A stretch of 64,000 nucleotides of DNA, taken from an uncultured Eubacterium sp. GTDB lineage: Bacteria > Bacillota > Clostridia > Lachnospirales > Lachnospiraceae. Positions 30,040 to 54,870 of the stretch are shown here, piece by piece. How positions within the stretch are numbered: position 1 is the stretch's first letter; each line of letters begins with the position of its first letter. The notes below the pieces were generated by a model. The model searched no databases. It had not been told where the DNA came from and saw nothing but the letters and a program-made list of their open reading frames with translations. The stretch is from positions 9,579 through 73,578 of the forward strand of contig CAZAEM010000006.1 in NCBI GenBank assembly GCA_964484225.1, read 5' to 3'. The position numbers were made by a program, and so were the translations under genes.

Positions 30040-31221
30040 ATGAAATTACTGTTTATGGACTGGCGCGCTTTCTGCCGTCAGGATGTACTGGACGCATTCC
30101 AGGCCCTGGGCCACGAATATATTCTATATCCATTATCGGATCAGGCGCAGAAACTGGGCATGGATCAGGAAGAGGTGGAGGGGATCCGGGCGGCCATCCA
30201 GAAAAACGGGTGTCAGTTTGTCTTCTCCATGAACTATTTTCCCATGGTCTCCGAGGCGTGTATGCGCGCAGGGATCCCCTACCTGTCCTGGATATATGAC
30301 AATCCCTACATGAAAGCCTATGCCGTGAACATAATCAACGACTGTAACTACATATTCACTTTTGACAGCGCCATGTACGAGCAGATCACTGCCCAGGGCG
30401 TCACCACCATGTACTACGCTCCCATGGCCGCCAACCCGGACCGCCTGACTTCTTATGTCCATATTCCACAGCGGTTCCGGCAGGACATCTCCTTTGTGGG
30501 AGCACTCTACAATGAAGATCACAATTTTTATGACGAATTCGTGAAAAATGCAAAAAAGAACGGAAAAGACCGCTGGATCGGCTACATCGACGCCCTGATC
30601 CAGGTGCAGCTGCAGCTGTACGGGACAAACATCCTCTCCCGATCCATCCAGCCGGATATCGCTGCCAGCGGTTACGCCAGCATCAACTCCTGGACAGAAC
30701 AAAACGCCTATTTCACCACACCGGAGGCACTGTTCTGCGACAATGTACTGTGTCGCCGTATCACCGCCATCGAACGTCAAACACTCCTGGAAAAACTGTC
30801 CCGAAACCACGAAGTGGCCCTCTACACCAGAAATCCGGAAGCAAAAGTCGGGAAATGCGACAACCGCGGTTACGTGGACTACAAAACAGAAATGCCCCAG
30901 GTGTTCCGGGGCAGCAAGATCAATCTCAACATCTCTCTGCGGAGCATCCAGAACGGCATCCCGCTCCGCGCCATGGAGATCATGGGCTGCGGAGGATTCC
31001 TGCTTACCAATTTCCAGAATGATTTTCTCCTTCATTTTGAGCCCGATGTGGATTTTGTCTACTATGAAAATATGGAGGATGCGCAGGAAAAGGCGGATTA
31101 CTACCTGGCGCACGAGAAGGAGCGGATGCAGATCGCAGAAAACGGTCTGGCAAAAATCCGGGAATATCACACCTATGAGAAAAGGCTGAAAGAGATGCTG
31201 GCATTGGCCGGCATGGCATGA
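30040..31221 (+). CDS. CgeB-like glycosyltransferase (DUF3880 N-domain plus Glyco_trans_1_2-type C-domain), paralogue 1
   Basis: It shares its architecture and motifs with 43776-44951 and 53710-54870: FVFSMNYFPMVS, ISFVGALY, and KINLNISLRSIQNGIPLRAMEIMGCGGFLLTN...AENG. Confidence 0.7.
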   Translation: MKLLFMDWRAFCRQDVLDAFQALGHEYILYPLSDQAQKLGMDQEEVEGIRAAIQKNGCQFVFSMNYFPMVSEACMRAGIPYLSWIYDNPYMKAYAVNIINDCNYIFTFDSAMYEQITAQGVTTMYYAPMAANPDRLTSYVHIPQRFRQDISFVGALYNEDHNFYDEFVKNAKKNGKDRWIGYIDALIQVQLQLYGTNILSRSIQPDIAASGYASINSWTEQNAYFTTPEALFCDNVLCRRITAIERQTLLEKLSRNHEVALYTRNPEAKVGKCDNRGYVDYKTEMPQVFRGSKINLNISLRSIQNGIPLRAMEIMGCGGFLLTNFQNDFLLHFEPDVDFVYYENMEDAQEKADYYLAHEKERMQIAENGLAKIREYHTYEKRLKEMLALAGMA

Positions 31222-31336
31222 AGGCCTTGGAGGGATTTTCTCAAATATACAAATCCTCCGGAGGATCATGGTCGGCACCGAGAAGCTGACTCTACAACCG
31301 GCACTACAGCCGCAAAATTCGATTCCTGTGCCAGGA

Positions 31337-31573
31337 CTACCCCTCCTGTATCCTCATCGCCATCTCGTGATAAAAAATATCGGCAGCCAGCACGTAATCC
31401 CTCTTCTCCACCGCGTCAAACAGTGGATTGATCAGCTCTGCAAACTCGGGAATGTTCGTTACCAGTCCCACCACATCCAGGAACATTCCCATTCCGTCCT
31501 CGATGCGTTCCTGATAAAAACAGGTAGAAATCTCAATCAATTTCTCCTTTACTACAGCAAGATCCATCTCCAT
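31337..31573 (-). CDS. Small helical protein (78 aa) homologous to the N-terminal extension of Maf paralogue 1
   Basis: LFDAVEKRDYVLAADIFYHEM aligns with Maf1 LLDAYEERDYILAADYMESGI, with 11 of 21 positions identical by eye. It is the last gene of the minus-strand island operon. Confidence 0.6.
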   Translation of the reverse strand: MEMDLAVVKEKLIEISTCFYQERIEDGMGMFLDVVGLVTNIPEFAELINPLFDAVEKRDYVLAADIFYHEMAMRIQEG

Positions 31574-31639
31574 CTTCTCCTATTCTTTTTTAATAAATTT
31601 TTTCATGACCTGTTTCACTGCACAATCAAACGTCTTTGT

Positions 31640-32659
31640 CTATAGCAATATAGAGCGCAGATACTCCACCAGTTCCGTGTTCTCCTCCTCCGTCCTGACC
31701 GCCAGGCGGATGTACTGTCCTTTTCCAATCTTACGGCTCAAATCTTTGATGAAAAAATCTTTCTCCAGCAGCCGGACCGCCAGCTCTCTGCCGGTCATAC
31801 CGCCGGACAGTCCGCACATGATATAGTTGGCCTGGGATCTGTATACTTTCAGGCAGGGAATCGCCTCCAGCTCCCTCTCCATCTTTTGCCTGGCCTGTCG
31901 CACCTTTTTCAGGGAAATATGGTAATCCCCCTTGTACTTCTCATATATCTGCATAAAAAACTCGCCGACAGAGTTGATATTCCAGATAGCCACGTCCTCT
32001 TTCAATGCCCGTATCATATCCTCGTCACTGCTGGCAAGAATGCCCAGGCGCAATCCCGGTATCCCGTATGATTTGGAAATAGACTTTACCACATACAATT
32101 TTTCGTATGAGATGAGGATCTCTTCCCTCAGGACAGAGTTTTCTTCCGGAGAGCCATCGCTGTCCACAAAATCTATGAAACTCTCATTCAGTATAAGGGC
32201 AAGATCCTGCTCCCTTGCCCAGGCGATCAGGCGCAGGACACCCTCCCTGTCCATATAGTTGCCGGAAGGATTATCCGGGTTGATGACCACGAGAGCGTCA
32301 ATCTCCCTGCCCTGAAAATTGTGGATGACCTCATCAGCACCGTAGCAGAAATCCGGCGCCGTATCATAAACCGCCGCCTCCCGGCAAAACCGGTTGGGAT
32401 ATTCCTCAAAGGTAGGTCGGATAAAGCCCATCCTCCGAAAATCTGTTCTCTCCATCAAAGCCTTAATCAGCTCGGCAGCACCGTTTCCCACCACAATGTG
32501 TTCACGGGACACGCCAAAATTTTTCGCCGCCAGAAGACTGTTCACCTCCATGCCGGATGGATACTGCGTGATCAGTGATGAGATGTTGGCATTGATCTCA
32601 TCCAGCATCTTCCGGGGAGGAAAATAGAGATTCTGCAATATCCAGATCCTGGATATCAT
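31640..32659 (-). CDS. Class I/II-fold PLP-dependent enzyme (HisC/CobD-like aminotransferase or decarboxylase)
   Basis: NLYFPP (NPxGPP-like), VVGNGAAELI, VINPDNPSG, and the PLP-lysine motif KSISKSYGIPGLRLG are present. The start is uncertain. ATG 32659 overlaps the upstream gene by 62 nt, and ATG 32608 would overlap by 11 nt but removes the NLYFPP strand. Confidence 0.75.
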   Translation of the reverse strand: MISRIWILQNLYFPPRKMLDEINANISSLITQYPSGMEVNSLLAAKNFGVSREHIVVGNGAAELIKALMERTDFRRMGFIRPTFEEYPNRFCREAAVYDTAPDFCYGADEVIHNFQGREIDALVVINPDNPSGNYMDREGVLRLIAWAREQDLALILNESFIDFVDSDGSPEENSVLREEILISYEKLYVVKSISKSYGIPGLRLGILASSDEDMIRALKEDVAIWNINSVGEFFMQIYEKYKGDYHISLKKVRQARQKMERELEAIPCLKVYRSQANYIMCGLSGGMTGRELAVRLLEKDFFIKDLSRKIGKGQYIRLAVRTEEENTELVEYLRSILL

Positions 32660-33350
32660 CAATCTCGTACCACAGTTTTCCCTCCAGCCGCCTGGCTTGG
32701 ATCTCCTTTGTCTCCAGCATGGCAATCAGTTTGATCACGGATTCGTAGTATTCGTTGTTCCCCATGGCCTTCGCATAGGCCCTCAGAAAAGGCAGGTAGG
32801 TGTTTTCTGAAAAATGCCGGCTGAATTTGTAGATATTTACTGTCTTATAGTACTTGTCCTTCTCCTCGAAATTCAGATATCTGCCGGGTATGAAATCTAT
32901 GATGCAGTCATTTTCATCCAGCACCGTACAGGTGCCGTCCATCCAGTTCTCAAATTTGTCCACCAGGGCCAGCGTATCCCTGGGATCCCGCAGCAGATCA
33001 TCGATGACAGACGCCTCAAACACCAGGTCGGATTCCAGAAGAAGGGTATCTTCCCTGCACAGATACTCCCCGGCCAGGGCGAGGGAGTATATATTGTTCG
33101 TCCTGTCATAAACATTGTTCTCGATAAAGACAATAGGTGTCCGGATATTCAGCGTCCCGATATAATCCCGCAGTTTCTGTCCACAATAACCGGTGATGAT
33201 AACAATCCTGGACAGATCCCTGTCATCCAGAATAAGTAACATCCTGTGAATGATCGTAACACCGTTCACCTCCACCATACACTTCGTGCGATCCGCTGTC
33301 AAGTTCTTCAATCTCTTACCCATTCCCGCTGCCAGAATCACTGCCTGCAT
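32598..33350 (-). CDS. LicC-like sugar/alcohol-phosphate nucleotidyl(cytidylyl)transferase
   Basis: MQAVILAAGMGKRL...RTKCMVEVNG is the NTP-transferase P-loop. The length of about 250 aa is LicC-like. I set the start at ATG 33350, 7 nt after GGAGGAAAAGG. Confidence 0.8.
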   Translation of the reverse strand: MQAVILAAGMGKRLKNLTADRTKCMVEVNGVTIIHRMLLILDDRDLSRIVIITGYCGQKLRDYIGTLNIRTPIVFIENNVYDRTNNIYSLALAGEYLCREDTLLLESDLVFEASVIDDLLRDPRDTLALVDKFENWMDGTCTVLDENDCIIDFIPGRYLNFEEKDKYYKTVNIYKFSRHFSENTYLPFLRAYAKAMGNNEYYESVIKLIAMLETKEIQARRLEGKLWYEIDDIQDLDIAESLFSSPEDAG

Positions 33351-33585
33351 ACCTTTTCCTCCGTCCGTTTTACAAAATAACAATCAAATTGTAAGCCTCG
33401 TCATAATCTTTGATCAGGGATCATCTGTGGGCGAGCAGCTTCTCCTTCTTTTCCAGATCGTGTATCTCGGTGACCACTGCCATTTTTTCTCAAACTCCCT
33501 GACTTGAGTTCTTCCTGTCCAATATACGGGTTGGTAATTGATATTTTACTCATAATCTATCTGTTCCCCCAATAGAAATAGGTTG

Positions 33586-34578
33586 TCACACATTATAAAT
33601 ATCCGTCTTATATCGGTCCATATTCTCCCGGATCCAGGCAATGGTCTCTCTGATCCCCTCCCTCAGGCTGTACCGGGGCGTCCAGTCCGTCAGGGATTTT
33701 ATCTTTGCATTGGCACCCAGCAGACGGTTCACTTCGCTTTTTTCCGGACGAAGCCTCTGCTCGTCACAGACGATCTCCGCTCCGGGATTGATCTGCGAAA
33801 TTATCTCCTCCGCCAACTCCCCGATGGAGATCTCCTGCTGGGTGGCGATATTGATCTCCTCCCCAAGAGTCCTCTCGGACTCTGCAATGGCGATGAAACC
33901 GGCCGCCGTGTCTTTCACATAATTGAAATCCCGGGTGGGGCTGAGGGCTCCCAGCTGTATCCTGTCCTTCCCCGCCAAAAGCTGGGATATGATCGTAGGT
34001 ATCACCGCCCTGGCGGACTGTCTCGGCCCATAGGTGTTGAAAGGACGGACGATGGACACCGGCAGATCAAAACTCCGATAAAAACTCTCCGCCAGACGAT
34101 CTGCCCCAATCTTGGTGGCTGAGTAGGGCGACTGCCCCTGGAACGGATGGTTTTCGTCAATCGGCACATACTTTGCCGTGCCGTACACCTCCGAGGTGGA
34201 GGTGACTAACACTCTCTCTGTGCCAAGTTCCCTGGCCGCCTGGAGCACATTCAATGTGCCCTTGATATTGGTATCCACATAGGAGTCCGGTGAATGGTAG
34301 CTGAAGGGGATAGCGATCAGCGCTGCCAGGTGAAACACATAGTCCATGCCCCGCATAGCTTCCCGGACTCCATTGGGATCCCGGATGTCCCCGGAAAATA
34401 TCTCAATCTCTCTCAACTTTCCCTCGGGAAAGGTATCCAGCCACCCCCAGGTGTTAAATGAATTGTAGCAGGTAAACGCCTTCACTTCATAACCGGCCTC
34501 CAAAAGGCTCTCCGTCAGATGGCTCCCGATGAATCCGTCCGCCCCCGTCACCAACACTTTCTTTCCCATATTCCTCAT
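33586..34578 (-). CDS. legB: NAD-dependent sugar-nucleotide 4,6-dehydratase, LegB-like
   Basis: The Rossmann motif is VLVTGADGFIGSHL. YNSFNTWGWLD is present, and the catalytic motif is SPYSATKIGAD (YxxxK). Confidence 0.75.
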   Translation of the reverse strand: MRNMGKKVLVTGADGFIGSHLTESLLEAGYEVKAFTCYNSFNTWGWLDTFPEGKLREIEIFSGDIRDPNGVREAMRGMDYVFHLAALIAIPFSYHSPDSYVDTNIKGTLNVLQAARELGTERVLVTSTSEVYGTAKYVPIDENHPFQGQSPYSATKIGADRLAESFYRSFDLPVSIVRPFNTYGPRQSARAVIPTIISQLLAGKDRIQLGALSPTRDFNYVKDTAAGFIAIAESERTLGEEINIATQQEISIGELAEEIISQINPGAEIVCDEQRLRPEKSEVNRLLGANAKIKSLTDWTPRYSLREGIRETIAWIRENMDRYKTDIYNV

Positions 34579-34689: not shown

Positions 34690-36267
34690 TTAGACGGAGA
34701 ACATCTGCATCACTTCTATAAGTTTCATTATCTGTGTCCCGGCAACCCGGGCTCCTCCCTCCGAGGCATCAATAAACTCAGTATGGCAATTATCCATTTT
34801 CGCTCTTTCAATCCGCCTTTCAATCCATCTTCTGTATGAATTTAGATTTTGGGAAGTTGACACCATATTTCCATAAATATCCGGCACCTGCCGTTCCGAT
34901 TTTCCAAATATATTCGCATCTGACAAGCCCTGATGGCTTCTCCCTCCGGTAAAAGCCAAATCCAATCCCAGGAAAACAACTCTCGCAGCCTTGAACTGAA
35001 TACAGATATCAAGTGCTGTTGTCGTCACCGAACTTCCTGTTTCAAAGGTCATCCATCCTTTTTCATCTGCATACTCTTCCGCAAGCGGGTATCCCTCCTG
35101 GCAAGCAATATATTTCATACCTTTATACTCATCCGCCAGACGCGCATAAGCAGTACTCAGGAGAATCAGTGGTACACCACAGGATTCATATCCCTTAATC
35201 TGACAGTAACATCCCTCCGTAGGATCTGTAATAATAGCAAGGTCCGGTTCTATCCCTTCTTTCATACACCGCCACAGAGACCTGCCTACCGTCAATATGA
35301 GGGAATCTTGATTCCGATCTTTCAACAAATGAATATTTTGATCCAATGACGGTCCACCGGCAATCAGATACACTGTTTTTCCACATACTCTGTCTCGTAA
35401 TTCCTCAACGCTATTATGAATGTGAGCTTTATTATAATTAAAATTTGCCAACATACGGCCAGCCCAGCGATCTGCATTATCCATCTGCAAAAAAAGCAGC
35501 TGCATTTTATCTCGCAAAAAGTCCTCATTTATCGTATATATAGATGGATCATAGATACAAATCTTACCATCCAATACGCCTTGATCAAACTGATATGCTC
35601 TTTCCGTAAATTGCCTGTATCCACAGTCCCAGATAATTTCGACATTGGTGCGTCTATCCAACATCTCCCATACATCGGAATAATGCTCCGCCAGCTCAAT
35701 CACATGCCTGTCCTCTTCATAGACATAAACCTTCACAAAAGAGTTCCTGCTCATCGCCTCAATATGATATCCAAACGCCAATCCGGCTACATAATACACC
35801 ATTTTTTCCTGACACTGCCAACGCCCGGCATAACTCTCCGCCTCTCGGGCTGGGCACAGATTAGTATGAAGATAGCGACGCCTTCCACCAATTGTCTTTG
35901 CCAGCGTACAGGCACCTGATGCGGTATACTCCACCTGATATGCCGACTCGGCAACCGGCTGTGGTAACTGTCGCACGAGATCCCCCACCACCAGCTCAAG
36001 ACAGGGAAGAATACCGGATTCCATGTAATCCGCTGCCAAAATATAATCTCTTTCTTCATATGCATCCAAAAGTTTGGAAAACAGCTCTGTCACTTCTGAC
36101 GCTCCCTGCATTTCCGGCAAAGCCATCACCTGCTCTATGGCAGGAATCACTTTCTGTATAAATAAAGTATCACAATAAGAAATCTGTTGTCTGCGTATGC
36201 TATCGCACCAGCGGTATAGCAGAGCGATACTGTTTTGTAAGGCTTTACGTGATAAATCTACTGACAT
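34690..36267 (-). CDS. maf: Motility-associated factor (Maf, DUF115/MptE-like) putative flagellin nonulosonate transferase, paralogue 1, with a helical N-terminal extension of about 90 aa
   Basis: The Maf core is VYLIAGGPSLDQNIHLL...DLAIITDP...VVFLGLDLAF. The gene overlaps legG by 10 nt. Confidence 0.8.
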   Translation of the reverse strand: MSVDLSRKALQNSIALLYRWCDSIRRQQISYCDTLFIQKVIPAIEQVMALPEMQGASEVTELFSKLLDAYEERDYILAADYMESGILPCLELVVGDLVRQLPQPVAESAYQVEYTASGACTLAKTIGGRRRYLHTNLCPAREAESYAGRWQCQEKMVYYVAGLAFGYHIEAMSRNSFVKVYVYEEDRHVIELAEHYSDVWEMLDRRTNVEIIWDCGYRQFTERAYQFDQGVLDGKICIYDPSIYTINEDFLRDKMQLLFLQMDNADRWAGRMLANFNYNKAHIHNSVEELRDRVCGKTVYLIAGGPSLDQNIHLLKDRNQDSLILTVGRSLWRCMKEGIEPDLAIITDPTEGCYCQIKGYESCGVPLILLSTAYARLADEYKGMKYIACQEGYPLAEEYADEKGWMTFETGSSVTTTALDICIQFKAARVVFLGLDLAFTGGRSHQGLSDANIFGKSERQVPDIYGNMVSTSQNLNSYRRWIERRIERAKMDNCHTEFIDASEGGARVAGTQIMKLIEVMQMFSV

Positions 36268-37445
36268 CTTTTTTCTTTGTCCCCTCCTTCCAGATCATAA
36301 AACTTTTTTTTCAAAGAAACCCCGCCCCGCAGCTGTTCCAGCAAAATCTCCACAATCTTCCCCGAGGTATTCCCTCCATCGTAGGGATTTTCCATATGTG
36401 CCAGCGAGCCCCGGAACTCCTCCGATGCCCCCTGTGCAAAAGCCGCCCGGATCTCTTCTTCCGTGTTCCCACAGTGGATCACCGAATCCGGTGCGATCCT
36501 GCCCTGCTGCCTGTCTCCGATGTCAATGGTCGGAATCCGAAAGGAGGGGACTTCTATAATGCCGCTGGAAGAATTCCCCATCACCATACAGCAATACTGC
36601 AACGCACTCAGATAACGCAACTGTCCCAGAGAGGTAAAAGCAATACTGTTCTCCGGATGGGAGGAGACAAACTCATCCATCATCTGATTGATGATCCGGC
36701 CCCCTGCATCAGCGTTCGCCTTGGTGAAGATAAACCGATACTCCGGTTCTCCCTCTATCACATGCAAAACGGCCCGGAACTGTTCCTCCGCCGTCCCCGG
36801 CTCCAACGTCACCGGGTGAAAGGTGACCATCACCGTCCTGTCCTCTATGGCAAAATCCATCTGCCGCTCCAGTTCCGGCTTATTTAACAGGGTCCTTTTC
36901 CGGATATTTTCCACTCCCAGGGCTCCCACGTAAAACACGCGGTCCGGGCTCTCCCCCAGTTGGATCACCCTGCGCCGATACTCCCTGGTGGCTGTGAAAT
37001 GCAGCTGACTCATCTTCGTGACTGCGTGCCGTATGGCCTCATCCGCCATCCCCTCCGTAGTCTCTCCTCCATGTATGTGGGCTATAGGTATGACGGCTGT
37101 CATCGCAGCTGTGGCCGCTGCCAGTATCTCATACCGGTCCCCCAGCAAAAGTACCAGATCCGGCCGGCTTCTCTCAAAGTAATCGGCAAATCCAAAAAGG
37201 GCCACTCCTATGGATTTCGTCACGCCGGCTCTGGTATCGGAGTCCAGCAGCATCTCTACCCTGGCGGTGATGGGAAATCCATCCGCCTCAATCTCTCTGT
37301 AGGTGAGACCGAACTCCGGGGACAGGTGCATTCCCGTGACCACCAGTTCCATCTCCACCGACTCCTCCCGGTGTAATCTCTCTATCACTGGCCGCAAAAG
37401 ACCGTATTCCGCCCTGGTTCCCGTAACGACACATATCTTCTTCAT
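36258..37445 (-). CDS. legG: Hydrolysing NDP-sugar 2-epimerase (NeuC/LegG type)
   Basis: MKKICVVTGTRAEYGLLRPV, VLLLGDRYE, and IAHIHGGE are present. Confidence 0.85.
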   Translation of the reverse strand: MKKICVVTGTRAEYGLLRPVIERLHREESVEMELVVTGMHLSPEFGLTYREIEADGFPITARVEMLLDSDTRAGVTKSIGVALFGFADYFERSRPDLVLLLGDRYEILAAATAAMTAVIPIAHIHGGETTEGMADEAIRHAVTKMSQLHFTATREYRRRVIQLGESPDRVFYVGALGVENIRKRTLLNKPELERQMDFAIEDRTVMVTFHPVTLEPGTAEEQFRAVLHVIEGEPEYRFIFTKANADAGGRIINQMMDEFVSSHPENSIAFTSLGQLRYLSALQYCCMVMGNSSSGIIEVPSFRIPTIDIGDRQQGRIAPDSVIHCGNTEEEIRAAFAQGASEEFRGSLAHMENPYDGGNTSGKIVEILLEQLRGGVSLKKKFYDLEGGDKEKRCQ

Positions 37446-38443: not shown

Positions 38444-38466
38444 GGCTGTTCCTCCCCTGCTCTGTA

Positions 38467-42582: not shown

Positions 42583-42765
42583 TTCACTTCCATCTCCTTT
42601 TTGAATATGTACCTTTGACGACAAATATCCTTTGAATCCCTCTCTGCCATATATCCTCTCCATCTAATATTTCCAAAAATCTCTCTTTGCTCTCCCACAC
42701 CCCTGTATCTCCGGCAGGATCATTATCACCTTCTCTTCCGGCAAAGCACTTTTTTTTCCACCGAG

Positions 42766-46051: not shown

Positions 46052-46076
46052 TCCCTCAATCCTTTCCCTCGTTCAT

Positions 46077-48123: not shown

Positions 48124-48882
48124 TCACCGGATATTCTCCGGGATCTCCCCGTATTTCTTCTCCGTTTTGTACAGATACTCGGCCATCACCTGCATCAGCT
48201 CAAAGTCCCTCTCATGGTCCAGATCCAGTATCCCGGTATCCGGCATCTCGATGATCTCACAGTGCCCCTCAAAACATCCCTTCGTCCTGCGGAGATAATC
48301 CGGCGAGTAGGCATACAGAGAGCCGTTCATATCATACACATCCGGCGCCTCCTGCCTTGCGATATAGTCGGACTGTATCACCCGGGTGTAACCATTCACA
48401 TCCTGTTTCACCATACTGAAATACGGGCTCCGCCTGGCCGGTGCCACGGAGAAAACCACATCACAGACGACCTCACTCTTCCTCTGCAGAAGCCTCTCTA
48501 TGTCCTCCACCCGGCGCAGGGGTGATGTGATGTCCAGATCCACCACCACATCGTAGTTCGTTTCCTTCCTTCTCTCCATCTGCTCCAGACAATCCAGAAT
48601 GACGTCTGATTTTGCCACTCTGTCCCCAGACAAAGCCGCCTCTCTGCGAATGATATCCACCCTCCGCATCCTGTTCCCCTCCATGATGCGGATCAGTTCT
48701 TCACTGTCCGTACTCACCACGATGTCCGCCGACCTCTCCGGATTCCTCACCAGATACAGGTCAATAGCCGACAGGGTATACAGACACAACGGTCTGCCGA
48801 GAAACTCTCTGACATTCTTGTTCCGAATCCCCTTCGATCCTGCACGACCGCAGATCGTAAACAAAATATTCATAGAATCCAT
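48124..48882 (-). CDS. legF: CMP-nonulosonate synthetase (acylneuraminate cytidylyltransferase family, LegF/NeuA-like)
   Basis: NILFTICGRAGSKGIRNKN is present. I set the start at ATG 48882, 9 nt after GGAGG and 1 nt after the upstream stop. Confidence 0.8.
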   Translation of the reverse strand: MDSMNILFTICGRAGSKGIRNKNVREFLGRPLCLYTLSAIDLYLVRNPERSADIVVSTDSEELIRIMEGNRMRRVDIIRREAALSGDRVAKSDVILDCLEQMERRKETNYDVVVDLDITSPLRRVEDIERLLQRKSEVVCDVVFSVAPARRSPYFSMVKQDVNGYTRVIQSDYIARQEAPDVYDMNGSLYAYSPDYLRRTKGCFEGHCEIIEMPDTGILDLDHERDFELMQVMAEYLYKTEKKYGEIPENIR

Positions 48883-48883
48883 A

Positions 48884-50557
48884 TCACTTATCCTCCCATT
48901 CTCTCCGGCATTTCTGTACATACTCTGTCAATTTCTCTATTCCCACCCTCTGGCTGACCGCAAAGTCATCCGACATATCTGCCATTTCATACAACTCCAG
49001 CAACGGATATACAAGATATTCTTTTCTACTTCCATCCCTGGGATCTTCCGCCGTCATTTCCCGGATCTCCTGCAGTTCCCTCTCACACTGGTCATAAACG
49101 GAAACCGGGGAGAATGTCTCCCCCCCCGCAAAGGTTCTCTCCGCCATGGCTTCCAGGTCAGCAAAATCCGAGTGGGGCCTGCCGTACCGCTTCACCGCCT
49201 CAGAAAACGGCATGACCTCTGCCCCCCGGATTTTTGCTCCCCGGAGAGATGTGTTGACCACATGGTCAAACCGGCAGGCCTTTATGGCATTCTCATACCA
49301 GAGGATAAAGCGGTGCCAGTCCCACCGGGATTGGACCATCTCCCCCTGATTGTTCTCACAGAGGTAGCGCACATTCTCCTCGTACCCCTCATCCCTGCCT
49401 CCCACATGGGACTGCTTCTCCTCACCATACACCATGTCCTGTCCCACCAGGATCACCGTCTCTGCCCCCAGATCACGGCATACGGCAAAGAGGGATGTGG
49501 CAGCGTTGGCACCGTAGCGGTAACGGGACTGCGGCACACCGTGATCACGATATATCCGCTCGGCAAAACCGCTCTCGTATCCGAATATCTTCCGCCCGTG
49601 ATGGATATCTGTCAGCTTGTGAGTCCCATCCAGCTTTGTGAGCAATGGAATTTCCCTGGCTCTTCTGTCCGCAAAGAAATACATCTTCTGATTTGGCTCA
49701 ATATTGGCGTAAATGTCCGGTACAACATCCTGACTCAGCAGAAACGGCAGAGCCGCATTCACGGCGAAGAGAAAAAAACTGTCCCTTTTGTCTCTCAGCA
49801 CCGATATCTCCTCCGCCAAAGAAGGTCCTGCTCCACAGACAACAATGGGCACTTCCCTCTCCCAGACGGCAGCCAGCTTAGGCACTACCGTACTCTCCGG
49901 CAGAAACTGCAGGTTGTGGAGTTGATTGTAGGGAGAGATATCAATAACATATCTGGCAATATTCCGCATAGTCGTCACCCTGCCGATCCCATCGTCGGCG
50001 TATCTCTCCACCAGCCTCTTGCGGCTCTCCGGGAATATCCGCTCCATGCCGGGACAGAGAATGAAGGAGTAATTCTCATAATTTTCCAGAGTCAGCATCT
50101 CCTCCATCACATTGCTGAACATATCCTCGTTGATCCCCTCAACGATAAGGCGCACCCCCGGCGTCTGAAAGCAAAAGCGGAGATCAAAATGATCTATAGC
50201 ATACAGAAAGATCCGGGGAGAGGGTTCATATATGAGAATTTTGCAGGATCCTGTACATCGCTTCAGTATCTCCCTGGCAAACACGCCATTTCCCAGCCCG
50301 AAGATAAAAATATTCTCTGCCCCCACATCCTGCCCCTCTGCCCAGATCTCCGCCTCGTTCTCCGGATAATACATGCTGTTCATTCGTATTTCCTCACCGG
50401 AGTGTGTCCGGAGCACCAGGGCATCCGATCCGGCCGCCGTCGCCATACTCTCTGCCCTCTCCACCACCGGATCGGGAATCTCCTCTCCCCCTTCATGAAT
50501 CCGCTGGTATAATTCAGGAAATCCTCTCTGCAGTGCAATCATATTCTCTCTTTTCAT
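48884..50557 (-). CDS. maf: Maf (DUF115) family protein, paralogue 2
   Basis: IVVCGAGPSLAEEISVL...DIYANIEP...VILVGQDMVY is the Maf core. GGAGGA lies 10 nt upstream of the ATG. Confidence 0.8.
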   Translation of the reverse strand: MKRENMIALQRGFPELYQRIHEGGEEIPDPVVERAESMATAAGSDALVLRTHSGEEIRMNSMYYPENEAEIWAEGQDVGAENIFIFGLGNGVFAREILKRCTGSCKILIYEPSPRIFLYAIDHFDLRFCFQTPGVRLIVEGINEDMFSNVMEEMLTLENYENYSFILCPGMERIFPESRKRLVERYADDGIGRVTTMRNIARYVIDISPYNQLHNLQFLPESTVVPKLAAVWEREVPIVVCGAGPSLAEEISVLRDKRDSFFLFAVNAALPFLLSQDVVPDIYANIEPNQKMYFFADRRAREIPLLTKLDGTHKLTDIHHGRKIFGYESGFAERIYRDHGVPQSRYRYGANAATSLFAVCRDLGAETVILVGQDMVYGEEKQSHVGGRDEGYEENVRYLCENNQGEMVQSRWDWHRFILWYENAIKACRFDHVVNTSLRGAKIRGAEVMPFSEAVKRYGRPHSDFADLEAMAERTFAGGETFSPVSVYDQCERELQEIREMTAEDPRDGSRKEYLVYPLLELYEMADMSDDFAVSQRVGIEKLTEYVQKCRREWEDK

Positions 50558-50603
50558 CTCTCTACATCCTCCATCTCTGCCTTTCCTGCTGTCCTCTCCT
50601 GTT

Positions 50604-52166
50604 CTATAACTCCAGTTTTTCCCATTCCTTCAAAACATACTGCAGAGCTTTCCGAAAGCGCTCCCTGCGGCTCCCATCATCCAAAGATTTCATATAATCC
50701 AGCACCAGACACATCACCGGTTTCTTTTCGAGGTTTGACTGAAAAAAAGCTTTTTCATAACCGGCCTCCCTGATCTCCCTCAAATCCGCCCCGCAGACTC
50801 TGAGTCCACCCATCAGATCTTCATACTCTCTCTCTGTGATATGCGTGAGAGGATTTTCAAACACAGATCTCAACTCCCCTCCCCGGGCCGGAAGGCTCTC
50901 CACCACCCGGCGAAGCGGGATCTGCTCTGTACCTGCTATCCTCGCCCCGCCCTCTGTGGCATTGATGAACCGGCACTCCGGAAACACCGGTATCGAGCGT
51001 TCAAACCAGTCATGAAACACATACCAGTCCCCCCGGGACCAGACTTTTCCGCCATAATATCCGTCCAACATATAGGATTCATCCTGAATAAAGCCCTCAT
51101 CCCGGCCTGTCACATGACTCCTCCCGTCCTCCGAGTAAGACAGATCCTGCCCAATGAAGATGAGTTCCCGGACTCCCAGTTCCATCAGGCAGGCAAACAG
51201 AACAGTGGAGACTCCGGAATAAGCCCTGAGCCTGGGCTGCTCAATCCCGGCATTCTCACAGAGCAGGCGGACAAAAGGATGATCCACTCCCCATATTTTC
51301 ACCGCCTGACTCATGTTCGGGAGTTCCTCGGAGACATTGCTAGTCAAAAGAACCGGAATATCCCGACTTCTCTCATCGGCCATCCAGTCCATGCGGATCT
51401 TGGCATCCGAACAGACGATGATATCCGGTACAATATCCCTTTTGAGCAGAGTGGGAACGGCAATGTCCACACAACAGATCCAGGCCCGTCCTTTCACCTT
51501 TTTCAATTCTTCTGCATTCTTCTCAAGGGAAGGTCCTGCTGACACCAGAATAGCCGGAACCTCGGTATCCCAGTATTTTTTCAGCCTGGCCAGAGGTATC
51601 CCGTTTCTCATGTTAGGCACATTGTGCAGCTGGTTGTGTATCATCTCCACAATAAACCGCTTGATCGGTGCCTTCATAAAACCAATTTCGTCACAAATTT
51701 TCACACATATCCCATCCAGCTGCATAAACTGCTCCGGACAGAGTACACGATAGCCGGGATGGGCTGCCAAAACCGTGGTCTCCACCGCATCCGCTCCCAA
51801 AATACCGCGAATTTCCCTCTCCACCTCTCCCAGGCTCTCCTGTCCCACATAGAGGGAGAGCCTTTCTTCCCCCTGTATCTTTCTGTAGGAATGCGATCCT
51901 TTCATGCAAGAAAAGACCGCCGGTTCCGGTTCCCACACGAGAATCTTTCCCCGGAAAACATTCAGAGCCCGGTCTATGATCTGGCAGTCTCCCATCCCCA
52001 TGAGGAGCATATTCTCCGGACCGTCCGTGTCAAACTGCTCCATCCAGACGTCTGTCGCATGTGTCCCGGCATACAGACTTCCCAAAGCGTACTCTTCACC
52101 ATCCTTTGAGACAACCGGAACGTCCTGTCCGTCTTCTGTTTTTTCCTTTCTGCATTTCACAGGCAT
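50604..52166 (-). CDS. maf: Maf (DUF115) family protein, paralogue 3
   Basis: AILVSAGPSLEKNAEEL...DIIVCSDA...LIFIGQDLSY is the Maf core. I set the start at ATG 52166 (MPVKCRK), 3 nt after AGAGGAGGA. The track start at 52181 is TTG. Confidence 0.8.
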   Translation of the reverse strand: MPVKCRKEKTEDGQDVPVVSKDGEEYALGSLYAGTHATDVWMEQFDTDGPENMLLMGMGDCQIIDRALNVFRGKILVWEPEPAVFSCMKGSHSYRKIQGEERLSLYVGQESLGEVEREIRGILGADAVETTVLAAHPGYRVLCPEQFMQLDGICVKICDEIGFMKAPIKRFIVEMIHNQLHNVPNMRNGIPLARLKKYWDTEVPAILVSAGPSLEKNAEELKKVKGRAWICCVDIAVPTLLKRDIVPDIIVCSDAKIRMDWMADERSRDIPVLLTSNVSEELPNMSQAVKIWGVDHPFVRLLCENAGIEQPRLRAYSGVSTVLFACLMELGVRELIFIGQDLSYSEDGRSHVTGRDEGFIQDESYMLDGYYGGKVWSRGDWYVFHDWFERSIPVFPECRFINATEGGARIAGTEQIPLRRVVESLPARGGELRSVFENPLTHITEREYEDLMGGLRVCGADLREIREAGYEKAFFQSNLEKKPVMCLVLDYMKSLDDGSRRERFRKALQYVLKEWEKLEL

Positions 52167-52225
52167 TGTCCTCCTCTGCAAAATTTGTTATAATACATTT
52201 ATTCTAATGAAACGAGGTGAATCTC

Positions 52226-52708
52226 ATGAAAAAAATTGGCATCATATATGAAGAAATCCCCGAGGAGGGTCTGACGCCAGTTCAGTGCCGGGACATGCTC
52301 ACACAGGCCGGATATGCCATCACACTCTACCACATACAGGAGGATTCCAATTTCCGCGAATATTTCAGCCAATGGAACCAGCCGGAAACAGATCTCTTCC
52401 TCACATACAATCTGGCAGGCCTGTCCTGTCGGACCACCAGCGGCACCAGTTCATACAATCTCCTTCCCCAGAACATCCTGCATTACGTGCAGAATCTCTC
52501 TCAGACCAGGCATCAGCTTCTGGAAGGAGTCCATACTCTGACAACGACTCTACTTGTCACCAGCCAAAAAGATGCCCAGTACGCCAAGACCCACTATCCC
52601 GGTATATACCGCATAATTCATATTGAGTCTCTGGAAAGGGACCTCATTCCCCTTTTGTCTAATCTGGACTGGCGCGAAGTTACCAAGTCCTCCATCTATG
52701 CGTCGTAA
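52226..52708 (+). CDS. Hypothetical protein (160 aa), possibly a solo DUF3880-like N-domain
   Basis: ATG 52226 lies 6 nt after GAGGTG. It loosely resembles the CgeB-like N-domains: MKKIGIIYEE...QAGYAITLY...DLFLTYNLAGLS versus ..VFS.N.FP..S. There is no GT C-domain. Confidence 0.5.
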   Translation: MKKIGIIYEEIPEEGLTPVQCRDMLTQAGYAITLYHIQEDSNFREYFSQWNQPETDLFLTYNLAGLSCRTTSGTSSYNLLPQNILHYVQNLSQTRHQLLEGVHTLTTTLLVTSQKDAQYAKTHYPGIYRIIHIESLERDLIPLLSNLDWREVTKSSIYAS

Positions 52709-52722
52709 TCCTGGCAAGATTT

Positions 52723-52750
52723 AAAAAGAGCCAGCCGGATTGGCTGGCTC
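52723..52750 (-). terminator. Intrinsic terminator of fliC (it also sits at the end of the convergent plus-strand gene)
   Basis: GAGCCAGCC-ggatt-GGCTGGCTC is a perfect 9-bp stem (52728-52750). On the minus strand it is followed by UUUUU. Confidence 0.8.
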
Positions 52751-52788
52751 TAAACAAAACATATGATCTCCTGTCACTATGAACCCCA

Positions 52789-53592
52789 TCAACCAAGCAG
52801 TGAGAGAACACCCTGGTTCAGCTGATTTGCCTGAGCAAGCATAGATGTTGAAGCCTGCTGCAAAATGTTGTACTTGCTGAATGTGGTCATCTCATCTGCC
52901 ATGTCCACATCGCGGATGCGGGACTCGGCATTCTGAATATTCTCTGCGGCATTGTCATCGTTCTTCACTGTGTACTCCAGACGGTTCTGAATAGCACCCA
53001 AGTGAGAACGGTTCTTGGAAAGACTCTCGATATCATTATCAATTGTTTTGATTGCTGCTGTTGCGGAACTATAATCGGACACCTGAGTCGAAATATCCGT
53101 CATGCTGGTCGCTGCAATACTGATTTGAATGTTCTGACCACTGTTTGCCCCTACCTGCAGGTTCTTACCTGTGAAGTCACCATTACACAACGTCATTGTG
53201 TTGAACTCTGTCTGGCTGGTGATACGGTCGAACTCTTTCTTCAACTGATTCAGCTCAGCACTGATGGCATTACGATCGGTACTTACGTTCGTGTCATTAG
53301 CTGCCTGTACAGCCAACTCACGGGCACGCTGCAGAATCGCATGCTGCTGCTCCATGGCGCCCTCTGCGGTCTGAATCAGAGAGATGCCATCCTGTGCATT
53401 GTCGGATGCTCTCTGAAGGCCTCTTACCTGGCCTCTCATCTTCTCAGAAATGCTCAGGCCGGCTGCGTCGTCTGCCGCACGATTGATTCTGTATCCACTG
53501 GAAAGTTTCTCTGTGGATTTGCTAAGATAGTTACCGTTAATTCCCAACTGCCTGTTGGTGTTCATTGATGAAATGTTGTGTTGAATAATCAT
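52789..53592 (-). CDS. fliC: Flagellin (short, 267 aa)
   Basis: MIIQHNISSMNTNRQLGIN...SSGYRINRAADDAAGLSISEKMRGQVRGLQRASDNAQDGISLIQTAEGA is the N-terminal D0/D1 region. The C-terminus is ...ILQQASTSMLAQANQLNQGVLSLLG. Confidence 0.95.
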   Translation of the reverse strand: MIIQHNISSMNTNRQLGINGNYLSKSTEKLSSGYRINRAADDAAGLSISEKMRGQVRGLQRASDNAQDGISLIQTAEGAMEQQHAILQRARELAVQAANDTNVSTDRNAISAELNQLKKEFDRITSQTEFNTMTLCNGDFTGKNLQVGANSGQNIQISIAATSMTDISTQVSDYSSATAAIKTIDNDIESLSKNRSHLGAIQNRLEYTVKNDDNAAENIQNAESRIRDVDMADEMTTFSKYNILQQASTSMLAQANQLNQGVLSLLG

Positions 53593-53599
53593 AATCCAT

Positions 53600-53633
53600 T
53601 CCTCCTTGAATTCCTATTGGCTTCCCTGCCAAT
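53600..53633 (-). promoter_or_regulatory. Candidate CsrA binding sites in the fliC leader
   Basis: The RNA hairpin AUUGGC-AGGGAA-GCCAAU (53633-53616) presents GGA in its loop. A second GGA-containing element is the Shine-Dalgarno sequence AAGGAGGA (53607-53600). Confidence 0.55.
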
Positions 53634-53657
53634 ATGTTTTGTTTTTTTACACTATAT

Positions 53658-53684
53658 ATATCGGCATGTTTTATTTATTGTTTA
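53658..53684 (-). promoter_or_regulatory. Sigma-D (sigma-28) promoter of fliC
   Basis: On the minus strand: TAAA (53684-53681), a 15-nt spacer, then GCCGATAT (53665-53658). This is an exact match to the Bacillus sigma-D consensus TAAA-N15-GCCGATAT. Confidence 0.75.
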
Positions 53685-53709
53685 CCTCTTTTTTTTATTT
53701 TTTTATTTT

Positions 53710-54870
53710 TTATTCGAAAACCATACCAAATATTTTCCGCAGCTGTCTGTCGAAGGAGAATTTCTCCACCGCTTTTCTCCCATTGGCCGCTATCCCGGCC
53801 CGCTCATCTTCATGCCGGAGATAATACTCCGCCTTGCTGACCGCATCCTCCACGCTGTCATACATAACGAGATCCTGCCCATCCACAAAATTCTCTGCGA
53901 TCTCCGGCTGATAGTTGGTCAGGAGGAATCCCCCCGCCCCGAGAATGTCCAGCACCCGCAGAGGAATACCCGAAGTGATTGACTTCAGAGATATATTGAG
54001 ATTGATCCTGCTCAGCCGGTACACTTTGGGTGTCTCCGAATAACTGTCAGCTGTGCCGCAGTACTCCACCCGGGGCAGCAGTTCCTCCGGTTTCGTGGAG
54101 TACAACTTCACCCGATACCTCTTTGAGAGAAAAGAGAGGATCCAAAGACGCTCTCGCCGGGTGATCTCCGACGCCGTGATGTGGCGTATCCACTTGGCAA
54201 AAATCCATCCCGGTTCACGACAGATCGCCGGCACATCCCCATACCTCTTCTGCATTGGGAGGAGCATATCATCCGTCAACACCTCCTCCAAAAAATTGCT
54301 TCCGTATATACGGATCTGAGCATCAATCACCGCATCAAAAAAGCCCTGCTCATAGTCATCCAGTCTGGCATAAAAGGGAAGAAAGTCCGTCCCGTACATG
54401 CTCCCCACGAAGGCAATATCACAGCCATAACTCACCCGCTCACCTTCGCTGATCTCCATGCCGTCCAGGCGCTGTGTATTCACTGCCAGTTCCAGATGTC
54501 CCACCGTGTCAAAGCCCATATTGATGTACTTCATAGCTTCGTCTCGATCAAAGAAAAACACCCGGTTCGTCTTAAGCCCCAGCGTCTCCTCCGGGTTGCG
54601 CACATTGAAAGGGCTGTCGTACACCCATGCGATATACGGGACGTTTTTCACCGAACAAAGTTTTGCCAGCACAGGATAATAATTCAGCGTCATCACCCCG
54701 TCATAGCCGCCCTCATCCATCACAGTGCCAAAATTTCTGTCAAAGTACTCATCCTCGTATATATCGGTAAAACAGTATCCGATCTCCCGAATAGATATCC
54801 CCAGTCTGATCAGTGCATCACGAAGATCCTCCTGCATATAGGCCTCCCACACGCATATCAGCAGTCTCAT
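53710..54870 (-). CDS. CgeB-like glycosyltransferase (DUF3880 plus Glyco_trans_1_2), paralogue 3, immediately upstream of fliC
   Basis: DGVMTLNYYPVLA, IAFVGSMY, and RINLNISLKSITSGIPLRVLDILGAGGFLLTN...AANG are present. I set the start at ATG 54870 after GGGAGGACAAT. Confidence 0.7.
   Translation of the reverse strand: MRLLICVWEAYMQEDLRDALIRLGISIREIGYCFTDIYEDEYFDRNFGTVMDEGGYDGVMTLNYYPVLAKLCSVKNVPYIAWVYDSPFNVRNPEETLGLKTNRVFFFDRDEAMKYINMGFDTVGHLELAVNTQRLDGMEISEGERVSYGCDIAFVGSMYGTDFLPFYARLDDYEQGFFDAVIDAQIRIYGSNFLEEVLTDDMLLPMQKRYGDVPAICREPGWIFAKWIRHITASEITRRERLWILSFLSKRYRVKLYSTKPEELLPRVEYCGTADSYSETPKVYRLSRINLNISLKSITSGIPLRVLDILGAGGFLLTNYQPEIAENFVDGQDLVMYDSVEDAVSKAEYYLRHEDERAGIAANGRKAVEKFSFDRQLRKIFGMVFE

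Follow-up and report, generated by a model that had tools for sequence, protein, structure and literature searches.

A probable two-module flagellin O-glycosylation island, partly decayed, beside fliC in a Lachnospiraceae-type gut bacterium

The window (the whole stretch of 64,000 nucleotides that was analysed), from a Lachnospiraceae-type gut bacterium, contains an enzyme gene cluster of ~25 kb that adjoins the flagellin gene (Table 1). The genes upstream are ordered flgK-flgL-fliW-csrA-flaG-fliD-fliS-flgN-like-fliC, and the island follows directly. A CgeB-like gene lies at each border, one of them between the chaperone genes and fliC, as had been described earlier. From the first maf (start at 52160 or 52166), a minus-strand run extends down to 31337 and encodes three Maf/MptE-like proteins, a CMP-synthetase, LegC, a CBS+NTP-transferase, a CgeB-like glycosyltransferase, LicD, an AP-superfamily protein, a GT-B protein, NeuD, NeuB, NeuC and LegB. 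Most junctions in the run are overlaps or gaps of at most 66 bp; the wider ones measure 111, 183 and 235 bp, and a 63-bp gap before legC holds a sigma-70-like site (11/12 match, 48111-48083). The only G/C run of at least 7 bases in the window (49120-49127) is inside Maf B.

Table 1. Features of the island and of the adjoining fliC unit, in order of position in the window.
Feature	Coordinates	Strand	Remarks
CgeB-like glycosyltransferase no. 1	30040..31221	+	convergent with minus-strand run; island border
78-aa ORF	31337..31573	-	resembles Maf C N-terminal helical segment (61% over 23 aa)
CobD-like PLP domain	31640..32608/32725	-	threonine/serine-phosphate decarboxylase-like
LicC/PntC-type cytidylyltransferase	32598..33350	-	domain intact; N-terminal half of broken fusion gene
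LegB, NAD-dependent 4,6-dehydratase	33586..34578	-	TIGR04180, 515 bits (cut-off 475)
Maf C, MptE-like domain	34690..36267	-	divergent, 21-24% identity to other Mafs
Hydrolysing 2-epimerase (NeuC homologue), LegG type	36258..37445	-	TIGR03568, 475 bits
NeuB-family nonulosonate synthase, LegI role	37442..38470	-	TIGR03569, 510 bits
NeuD/PglD-type N-acetyltransferase, LegH role	38467..39078	-	TIGR03570, 196 bits (cut-off 161)
525-aa protein with C-terminal GT-B domain	39066..40643	-	Glycos_transf_1 / Glyco_trans_1_4
TPR + beta-rich middle + AP-superfamily (sulfatase-fold) enzyme	40633..42582	-	
LicD-family phospho-headgroup transferase	42766..43758	-	
CgeB-like glycosyltransferase no. 2	43776..44948	-	
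CBS + NTP-transferase, PtmE-like	44945..46045	-	sugar-1-phosphate guanylyltransferase role
Pseudogene of TPR-Glyco_tranf_2_5-methyltransferase gene	46077..46869	-	two end fragments
LegC aminotransferase	46900..48060	-	TIGR04181, 445 bits (cut-off 420)
CMP-nonulosonate synthetase (CTP_transf_3), LegF role	48124..48882	-	
Maf B, MptE-like domain	48884..50557	-	
Maf A, MptE-like domain	50604..52166	-	PseD-like
160-aa ORF of no recognised family	52226..52708	+	between fliC and first maf, divergent from maf
Intrinsic terminator closing fliC unit	52727..52751	-	10-bp stem + T-run
fliC, minimal 267-aa flagellin	52789..53592	-	13 Ser/Thr within residues 136-185
Sigma-D (sigma-28) promoter of fliC	53659..53684	-	TAAA-N15-GCCGATAT, perfect match to consensus
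CgeB-like glycosyltransferase no. 3	53710..54870	-	DUF3880 + Glyco_trans_1_2; between FlgN-like chaperone gene and fliC
Intrinsic terminator 3' of FlgN-like gene	54893..54918	-	11-bp stem + T-run

fliC is in its own sigma-D transcription unit, with strong terminators on either side, the upstream one ending 22 nt from the ATG of the third CgeB-like gene. A good RBS and a sigma-70-like promoter (52166-52194) precede the divergent 160-aa ORF, which is kept at the same position in related islands. The preliminary description read the minus-strand genes as one very long operon, which is unproven because a strong promoter-like site precedes legC; a further such site lies upstream of the NTP-transferase, and the divergent gene precedes the maf run. 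Its count of 17 intact genes has to be revised, since the cytidylyltransferase and PLP genes, a pair absent from that description, are one broken fusion.

The first of two modules is a complete legionaminic-type set, as had been proposed (NeuC, NeuD, LegB, LegC, NeuB, CMP-synthetase and a PtmE-like enzyme). LegB, LegC, NeuC, NeuB and NeuD all exceed curated NCBIfam cut-offs, and the NeuC homologue scores 321 bits against the solved GDP/UDP-diNAcBac 2-epimerase (LegG type) versus 65 bits against the meningococcal sialic-acid enzyme; the solved LegG-type epimerases 5ZLR/5XVS match it with E = 1e-94. The LegB and LegC scores and the LegG-type NeuC homologue uphold the earlier assignment to a legionaminic-type nonulosonate, and the contrary idea, that NeuB and NeuC are of sialic-acid type, is answered in part, by NeuC. 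CMP-legionaminic acid would be made via the GDP-GlcNAc route by the CBS-NTP-transferase, LegB, LegC, NeuD/LegH, the LegG-type NeuC, NeuB/LegI and the CMP-synthetase, and up to three Mafs would then attach the sugar to Ser/Thr in the short central segment of the flagellin. Maf C has a low GC3 (0.43), and the 78-aa ORF that resembles it may be a remnant or else a small protein with an accessory role.

This module shares with the Campylobacter jejuni flagellar locus (PtmE/LegB/LegC/LegH/LegG/LegI/LegF and maf genes) all seven CMP-legionaminic roles, the GDP-GlcNAc route, and the presence of multiple, cytoplasmic Maf paralogues (PMC9298399, PMC13130089). It differs in that the Pse pathway is missing from our island and that its Gram-positive host has a minimal flagellin. 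To our knowledge, the C. jejuni locus has no CgeB-like, LicD, cytidylyltransferase or AP-superfamily genes. The flagellar hypervariable region of Clostridium (C. butyricum, C. botulinum) is likewise a variable block of mosaic composition in the late flagellar genes, near fliD/fliS/fliC, with up to 30 genes, Leg and/or Pse, about three Mafs, and TPR-bearing transferases (PMC13317340). That region sits between flgB and fliD, whereas the island in the window comes after fliC, and CgeB, LicD and sulfatase-like genes go unmentioned in the Clostridium survey.

The second module is the typical set of Lachnospiraceae flagellin loci, namely CgeB-like glycosyltransferases, a GT-B protein, LicD, a cytidylyltransferase and an AP-superfamily enzyme. 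The model of CgeB-like protein no. 3 (AF2, pLDDT 93) has a GT-B, GT4-like fold, and its best PDB neighbours are the retaining GT4 enzymes PimB', PimA, BshA, MshA and PglA (TM 0.55-0.67). Across 80 Lachnospiraceae loci, CgeB-like genes usually adjoin fliC directly and Maf/NeuB are mostly absent, a statement limited to the 10-kb flanks. Of the 48 loci whose 10-kb flanks are complete, flagellar genes occur in 27 and fliC in 26; among 26 loci with a canonical fliC, the CgeB-like gene is its direct neighbour (≤300 bp) in 16. The layout fliC-CgeBx3-LicD-(NTP-transferase-CobD fusion) recurs in L052, L079 and L081. In agreement with the preliminary description, the literature searched describes no flagellar role for CgeB/DUF3880.

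The CgeB family takes its name from a spore maturation protein, CgeB is a feature of the spore crust in Bacillus subtilis, and the Lachnospiraceae include spore formers. B. subtilis combines, in the surface glycosylation of one organism, a CgeB-family Glyco_trans_1_2 protein with a legionaminic pathway that spore crust assembly needs (PMC7439481), so another target is conceivable: the glycosylated structure might be the spore surface or a different layer of the envelope, in the manner of sps/cge, with the cluster next to fliC by chance. We consider this very improbable. All characterised Mafs are flagellin-specific transferases (PMC4065374, PMC9298399, PMC11339370), dozens of independent loci in Lachnospiraceae show the same adjacency to fliC, and the island lies within the late flagellar gene block, as does the clostridial hypervariable region (PMC13317340). 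The sps pathway, moreover, begins at UDP-GlcNAc (SpsM) and serves spores, whereas here LegB, a PtmE-like enzyme and Maf adjoin fliC.

The 525-aa GT-B protein had been called GT41-like, a label that lacks support because its sole Pfam matches, even at E ≤ 10, are Glycos_transf_1 families; its 330-aa N-terminal region has no match. Together with the three CgeB-like GT4-type enzymes, it would add ordinary nucleotide-sugar-derived residues. A comparable arrangement is Fgi-1 of the Aeromonas polar flagellum, where a Maf-dependent nonulosonate and further glycosyltransferases give a heterogeneous flagellin oligosaccharide (PMC7874193), although the glycosyltransferase families and host lineage differ and a phospho-headgroup module is missing there.

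The nearest solved relatives of the cytidylyltransferase are PntC-type 6PD1 and LicC 1JYK, and its homologues are named "phosphocholine cytidylyltransferase family" in databases. In relatives it is fused to the CobD-like PLP domain in a single ORF of about 605 aa, and PEP-mutase-cytidylyltransferase fusions also occur at the equivalent position. The AP-superfamily protein has a sulfatase fold, with D271, T310, D415, H417, D494 and H495 invariant; Thr310 occupies the site of the formylglycine Cys/Ser in sulfatases. Members of its rare family turned up here solely in flagellin islands (fliC/Maf/NeuB/LicD/CgeB; three of three contexts inspected). We propose that the cytidylyltransferase and LicD attach a CDP-activated phospho-amino-alcohol head group, and that the AP-superfamily enzyme, fused to TPR and using Thr as its nucleophile, would transfer a phospho(no)ester or trim it. 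The identity of that head group is an inference, as is any remaining activity of the split PLP enzyme.

The usual targets of LicD are teichoic acids or LPS, and the LicD, AP-superfamily and GT-B genes have a GC3 of 0.52-0.53 versus 0.59-0.69 elsewhere, which points to their separate acquisition. One locus (L008) has the same module with TagF-like glycerophosphotransferases and no flagellin in range. It is therefore conceivable, if improbable, that the legionaminic enzymes and Mafs alone act on flagellin, and that the CgeB-like, LicD, cytidylyltransferase and AP-superfamily proteins modify some different substrate, in the cytoplasm or at the surface, their genes sharing no more than a location in a hypervariable region. 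Against this, many relatives carry CgeB-like and LicD genes directly after fliC with no Maf/NeuB within 10 kb, and the AP-superfamily contexts are as described above. Hydrophobic segments of transmembrane grade are absent from every island protein, and the island contains no gene for a flippase (Wzx), a polymerase (Wzy), an ABC or other exporter, or a lipid-carrier priming transferase. Since all the proteins are soluble, the chemistry on flagellin would take place in the cytoplasm, ahead of type-III export. The position after the late flagellar genes, the soluble products and the lack of an exporter bear out the earlier reading as a flagellin glycosylation island.

Small amino compounds on clostridial flagellin have a precedent in Clostridioides difficile 630, whose type A glycan carries phosphodiester-linked N-methyl-threonine (GlcNAc-phospho-N-methyl-threonine; PMC4441256). 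The enzymes differ, being a glycosyltransferase, a glycerophosphotransferase-like enzyme and a methyltransferase there, and LicD, a LicC/PntC-type cytidylyltransferase, a CobD-like PLP enzyme and an AP-superfamily enzyme here. The pairing of a small-molecule cytidylyltransferase with a LicD transferase resembles Streptococcus pneumoniae lic (LicC + LicD) and Treponema PntC. Unlike those systems, the cytidylyltransferase in the window was ancestrally fused to a CobD-like PLP enzyme, and the acceptor would be a glycan made on protein in the cytoplasm; LicA kinase and LicB transporter are missing, and the island encodes neither a kinase nor a transporter for a precursor of the head group.

Two accessory genes of the island are decayed. 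The pseudogene noted earlier is confirmed and identified as a TPR-GT2-methyltransferase remnant, reduced to an N-terminal TPR/GT2 fragment (46291-46869, 192 aa) and a C-terminal methyltransferase fragment (46077-46334, 85 aa), with an internal loss of roughly 300 codons. In the cytidylyltransferase-PLP fusion, an out-of-frame deletion near 32600-32640 removes a linker of ~30 codons, and the PLP half, whose only in-frame ATG past the junction is at 32608, lacks both the linker and the N-terminal GGYWRYP segment conserved in relatives. Misassembly might in principle account for the split at about 32600; the sole further copy found is in a Logan contig that may not be independent of the window's source. 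With two genes decayed, part of the second module may be inactive, and the list of genes may overstate the complexity of the glycan. Taken further, with the 78-aa Maf-like fragment added, the decay could mean that most of the accessory part no longer works in this strain and that each flagellin site bears one legionaminic-acid-type residue. We regard this as unlikely, as the three CgeB-like proteins, LicD, the AP-superfamily enzyme, the GT-B protein and the cytidylyltransferase domain all keep their full length and conserved motifs, free-standing cytidylyltransferases of 248-251 aa occur in other genomes, and general metabolism or the environment could supply phosphoethanolamine or phosphocholine.

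Considered as a whole, the explanation that we favor with good confidence is a composite flagellin O-glycosylation island, in which a legionaminic module and a Lachnospiraceae-typical module stand together with decayed genes. The analysis shows which genes are present, their domain architectures, folds and synteny, and the motifs of promoters and terminators; flagellin would be the target, and the Maf and CgeB-like enzymes would divide the labour. The earlier proposal of a glycan larger than a single nonulosonate is likely, given the GT4-like CgeB proteins and the LicD/cytidylyltransferase pair, and is tempered by the two decayed genes. Islands of this kind are already known, but three enzyme families in this one are not known to have been tied to flagella. 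As judged from sequence, the sugar coat on the filament is probably more complex than legionaminic acid, and decorated with phosphate.

The three CgeB-like (DUF3880) paralogues of the island share 33-34% identity, and each has an N-terminal PF12996 domain (DUF3880, YkvP_N; E = 1e-13 to 3e-20) and a C-terminal PF13524 domain (Glyco_trans_1_2; E = 3e-20 to 2e-28). The family comprises 2947 matches at E <= 1e-10; those that carry a name in their sources are listed as "glycosyltransferase", "DUF3880 domain-containing protein" or "spore maturation protein CgeB". Fold predictions were made because PDB sequence searches with a CgeB-like protein, the 525-aa glycosyltransferase and Maf A returned nothing useful. 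The AF2 model of the CgeB-like protein (pLDDT 93.4) has a GT-B fold with a nucleotide-sugar-binding C-terminal Rossmann domain, and Foldseek matches it to GT4 enzymes (E = 3e-10, TM up to 0.67). Its best solved neighbors are retaining GT4 transferases that use UDP- or GDP-sugars (9-15% identity), and so, judging from the model, the CgeB-like enzymes should add ordinary sugars rather than nonulosonates.

A synteny scan of the three paralogues against one genome per species gave 80 loci, nearly all labelled as Lachnospiraceae genera or uncultured Clostridia. The counts that follow rest on the 48 loci with full 10-kb flanks, and cover 10 kb on each side. Flagellar genes are present in 27 of the 48 and fliC in 26; Maf and NeuB genes occur in only six loci each. 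Among 26 loci whose fliC is canonical, 16 have the CgeB-like gene as the direct neighbor of fliC. Three loci from other genomes (L052, L079 and L081) have a recurrent layout, flgK-flgL-fliW-flaG-fliS-flgN-fliC-CgeBx3-LicD-(cytidylyltransferase-CobD fusion). By our estimate, which assumes a handful of flagellin genes per ~3-Mb genome, chance would place a fliC neighbor within 20 kb in no more than a few per cent of cases. On the evidence of gene neighborhoods, the CgeB-like family is therefore tied to flagellin and, within the 10 kb covered per side, largely independently of Maf. The preliminary description knew of no characterised flagellar role for this family, and literature searches for DUF3880 or CgeB with flagellin found no relevant paper. 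A 2014 paper places a C. acetobutylicum gene with DUF3880 and glycosyltransferase domains beside Maf and NeuB genes, and the word "flagell" is absent from it.

The gene content and coordinates first assigned to the island are confirmed by the ORF layout and by Pfam and NCBIfam scans, and the main features are collected in the table below. Within the minus-strand run, most neighboring genes either overlap by 4-13 nt or are separated by <=66 bp, and the convergent junction (31221-31337) shows neither a hairpin nor a terminator. Run SRR10165008 yields a Logan contig with an identical stretch, perhaps from the same source as the window. Upstream of flgK, at 62831-63826, is a second hook-associated paralogue of the FlgK_D1 type, which is cut by the window end; on Logan contig L001 it occupies 289-2040 (583 aa). 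The fliC region has no megablast match to plasmids, and neither Rfam (E <= 0.1) over 29000-59500 nor a tRNA scan found anything.

Coordinates of island and flagellar features, in window positions except for the fusions in related loci
Feature	Position	Strand	Remarks
flgK	60931-62772	-	upstream of island
flgL	59397-60902	-	upstream of island
fliW	58917-59381	-	upstream of island
csrA	58697-58912	-	upstream of island
flaG, fliS		-	flagellar block upstream of island
fliD	55873-58140	-	flagellar block upstream of island
FlgN-like chaperone gene	54964-55458	-	followed by CgeB-like gene
Terminator	54918-54893	-	upstream of cgeB3
CgeB-like gene (cgeB3)	53710-54870	-	between FlgN-like gene and fliC
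fliC	52789-53592	-	after cgeB3
Terminator	52751-52727	-	closes fliC
160-aa ORF	52226-52708	+	between fliC terminator and first maf; good RBS, sigma-70-like promoter
Minus-strand run	52160/52166 to 31337	-	first maf to end of 78-aa ORF
LicC/PntC-type cytidylyltransferase	32598-33350	-	6PD1 E = 5e-17; LicC 1JYK E = 1e-12, full length
CobD-like PLP enzyme	31640-32725	-	6OUX E = 1e-38; CobD 1LC5
CgeB-like gene	30040-31221	+	converges on minus-strand run
Cytidylyltransferase-PEP-mutase fusion	L082 6720-8727; L085/L086 ~20988 onward		with LicD and CgeB-like genes

Directly at the island border (28759-29846, minus strand) are an XRE-family HTH gene and an ImmA/IrrE (peptidase M78) gene, a pairing characteristic of mobile elements. 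Since the listed HlyIII ORF shares 151 nt with the M78 gene, the true HlyIII start probably lies later. GC3 is 0.43 for Maf C, 0.52-0.53 for the LicD, AP-superfamily and GT-B genes, and 0.59-0.69 for the other island genes; this mosaic, at 34690-36267 and 39066-43758, suggests separate acquisitions.

The fliC promoter is a perfect match to the sigma-D/sigma-28 consensus (TAAA-N15-GCCGATAT, 53684-53659), and the cgeB3-fliC pair is bracketed by two strong terminators. The ATG of cgeB3 is only 22 nt past the upstream terminator, which leaves no room for a promoter between them (54870-54918), and cgeB3 is therefore reachable only by read-through from the fliD-fliS-flgN unit. Within the island, the strongest sigma-70-like match (11/12 plus extended TG) is immediately before legC, and a 10/12 site is located at the legB 3' end, upstream of the gap of 235 bp in front of the cytidylyltransferase gene. 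Given the separate fliC promoter, the terminators, the divergent plus-strand gene and these internal promoter-like sites, the single very long operon that had been proposed is not established. The plus-strand gene is the 160-aa ORF, which has no Pfam or NCBIfam match; homologues occupy the same position in L082 (161 aa) and L083/L084 (152 aa), and in L003 the homologue adjoins a CgeB-like gene.

The fliC 5'UTR (53593-53658, minus strand) contains a hairpin, TATTGGCAGGGAAGCCAATA, with GGA in its loop, and an AAGGAGG Shine-Dalgarno sequence. Flagellin mRNAs under CsrA control show this two-site layout, a hairpin-loop GGA combined with a Shine-Dalgarno site. The promoter, fliW and csrA (58697-59381) and the 5'UTR GGA sites of a sigma-D flagellin gene under a FliW-CsrA layout are all present, and these features are consistent with FliW-CsrA control of fliC.

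The proposal that the island makes legionaminic acid is well supported by profile scores. LegB (TIGR04180, 515.5 bits, cut-off 475) and LegC (TIGR04181, 445.4 bits, cut-off 420; PseC only 207 bits) both exceed their cut-offs, as do NeuD (TIGR03570, 196 bits, cut-off 161) and, at curated NCBIfam thresholds, NeuC (475 bits) and NeuB (TIGR03569, 510 bits). In addition, the NeuC homologue is nearer to the GDP/UDP-N,N'-diacetylbacillosamine 2-epimerase (5ZLR/5XVS, 321 bits) than to the meningococcal UDP-GlcNAc 2-epimerase (6VLB, 65 bits). The alternative raised at the outset, that the NeuB and NeuC homologues belong with sialic-acid capsule enzymes, is thus disfavored for NeuC, which sides with LegG-type epimerases; NeuB is not typable by PDB scores, as it matches PseI (212 bits) about as well as SiaC (195 bits) and a LegI structure is not available for comparison, and TIGR03569 takes in NeuB and LegI together. 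The CMP-synthetase matches PseF/CTP_transf_3 weakly (75 bits, cut-off 206). The CBS+NTP-transferase architecture has no specific model, and we take it to fit PtmE, the GlcN-1-P guanylyltransferase; together the two enzymes would complete a CMP-legionaminic acid route (GDP-GlcNAc).

All three Maf proteins contain the PF01973 MptE-like (DUF115) domain over 168-170 of its 171 profile positions, and all have the size (~520-650 aa) and domain of the Maf class tested. They are 21-30% identical in pairs, match NF050051 (PseD) only partially, and are encoded beside flagellin and nonulosonate biosynthesis genes. The maf genes of Campylobacter have phase-variable poly-G tracts. In Maf B, a stretch of eight C (49120-49127; G8 in the coding direction) is the sole G/C homopolymer of at least 7 in the 64-kb window; we do not read it as phase variation, since chance alone should give about one to two of these in 64 kb.

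The 525-aa protein (39066-40643) had been called GT41-like, an identity that we reject: even at E <= 10 its matches are confined to Glycos_transf_1 and Glyco_trans_1_4, there is no Glyco_transf_41 (OGT-like) match, and TPR repeats are found in the neighboring AP-superfamily protein instead. The pseudogene of the preliminary description consists of the two ends (46291-46869 and 46077-46334) of a TPR + Glyco_tranf_2_5 + SAM-methyltransferase gene, which is intact in four related loci (L023, L047, L050 and L059). The island proteins have no transmembrane-grade hydrophobic segment, and the island has no flippase, polymerase or exporter gene, which fits cytoplasmic protein modification rather than synthesis of a surface polysaccharide.

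The preliminary description did not include the cytidylyltransferase and PLP-enzyme ORFs. In four relatives these form a single ORF of 603-611 aa, and in the window a ~30-codon linker is gone, out of frame, including the conserved GGYWRYP...LVNPY(F/Y)PP segment. The cytidylyltransferase is still intact, and the PLP half has an internal ATG (32608) as its sole possible start. The PLP enzyme's match 6OUX has the deposited name "threonine phosphate decarboxylase-like", and a literature search on that code found no relevant paper. The many ~430-aa matches to the cytidylyltransferase were considered as a third architecture and rejected; they stop within a domain, so they are probably fragments. LicD matches the full PF04991 profile (123 bits), and neither a LicA kinase nor a LicB choline transporter is found among the island ORFs.

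The cytidylyltransferases of relatives are fused either to the CobD-like PLP enzyme or to PEP mutase. The PEP-mutase fusions are next to LicD in two related islands (L082; L085/L086, which share one gene layout), and this gene content implies a phosphonate, such as aminoethylphosphonate, on the flagellin glycans there. A further locus, from an Acetatifactor MAG (L008, 432-12356), has LicD, an intact cytidylyltransferase-CobD fusion (2043-3854) and three CgeB-like genes, together with a cytidylyltransferase-GFO/IDH oxidoreductase fusion, two TagF-like glycerophosphotransferases and a GT2; no flagellin is within its range. Literature searches for LicD with flagellin and for LicD with phosphate decarboxylase found no relevant paper.

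Counted from its ATG at 42582, the AP-superfamily protein has 649 aa, made up of N-terminal TPR repeats, a beta-rich middle region and a sulfatase-fold domain with D271, D494 and H495 as invariant metal ligands. We considered a type I (formylglycine) sulfatase at 40633-42582 and rejected it, as the C/S-x-P-x-R signature is absent: the formylglycine position is an invariant Thr (T310-Y-P-S-V..W-T-G) in place of Cys/Ser, and the signature Arg is missing, although the remainder of the signature (..W-T-G) is retained. Phosphoryl-transfer members of the superfamily, such as NPP, LtaS and EptA, are characterised by a Thr nucleophile. Only 34 homologues of this TPR-AP protein turned up among 5.8 billion proteins, and all three contexts seen are fliC/Maf/NeuB/LicD/CgeB islands.

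Taken together, these genes would act as follows. Flagellin, expressed from its own sigma-D unit, would be O-glycosylated before export on 13 Ser/Thr of residues 136-185. The Maf proteins would transfer CMP-legionaminic acid, and the CgeB-like enzymes and the 525-aa GT-B enzyme would add, or extend with, hexose-type sugars. The cytidylyltransferase would make a CDP-activated donor from which LicD would move a phospho-amino-alcohol, and the TPR-AP enzyme may transfer or trim a phospho(no)ester, perhaps docking on flagellin by its TPR repeats. The ancestral fusion partner is the sole basis for deducing the head group; phosphoethanolamine from phosphoserine, or aminopropanol phosphate from phosphothreonine, would be the product of a CobD-like enzyme. 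Since the PLP partner is damaged in this strain, the donor may have another source, or this branch may be inactive. We infer the order of action and the chain-initiating enzyme. As a tentative generalization, in which our confidence is somewhat below even, the CgeB-like GT-B enzymes may form a class of flagellin O-glycosyltransferases that does not depend on Maf, has so far gone unrecognised and is standard in Lachnospiraceae (Roseburia, Lachnospira, Eubacterium, Butyrivibrio and relatives), and that, with LicD, the cytidylyltransferase fused to a PLP enzyme or PEP mutase, and the TPR-Thr-nucleophile AP enzyme, would build zwitterionic phospho- or phosphono-amino-alcohol glycans on the flagellins of dominant gut commensals.

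Flagellar glycosylation islands that combine legionaminic acid genes with several Mafs are well known in Campylobacter, Clostridium, Geobacillus and Aeromonas (PMC9298399, PMC13317340, PMC5109656, PMC7874193), and there is a clostridial precedent for a flagellin glycan bearing a phospho-linked amino compound (PMC4441256), so that the kind of island is known. Our literature searches turned up no description of a link between CgeB/DUF3880 and flagellin, of the LicD + fused-cytidylyltransferase module in flagellin islands, or of the TPR-AP-superfamily family.

Lachnospiraceae flagellins rank among the chief antigens and TLR5 ligands that bacteria present to the mammalian gut, and the interest of the island is mainly through their role in gut immunity. 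According to a recent review, it is unclear whether the muted signalling of these flagellins stems from protein sequence or from glycosylation (PMC10876039). The island and its relatives supply candidate genes for this question, namely a conserved fliC-adjacent glycosyltransferase family, a rare enzyme of the AP superfamily and a module for a phospho(no) head group, so that the origin of the muted signalling becomes testable by mass spectrometry and knock-outs. The repertoire of flagellin glycosylation enzymes would be extended past Maf, FlmG, GT2 and OGT-like transferases and, if our reading of the CgeB-like enzymes is true, their glycans would sit on flagellins that are major TLR5 ligands and antigens.
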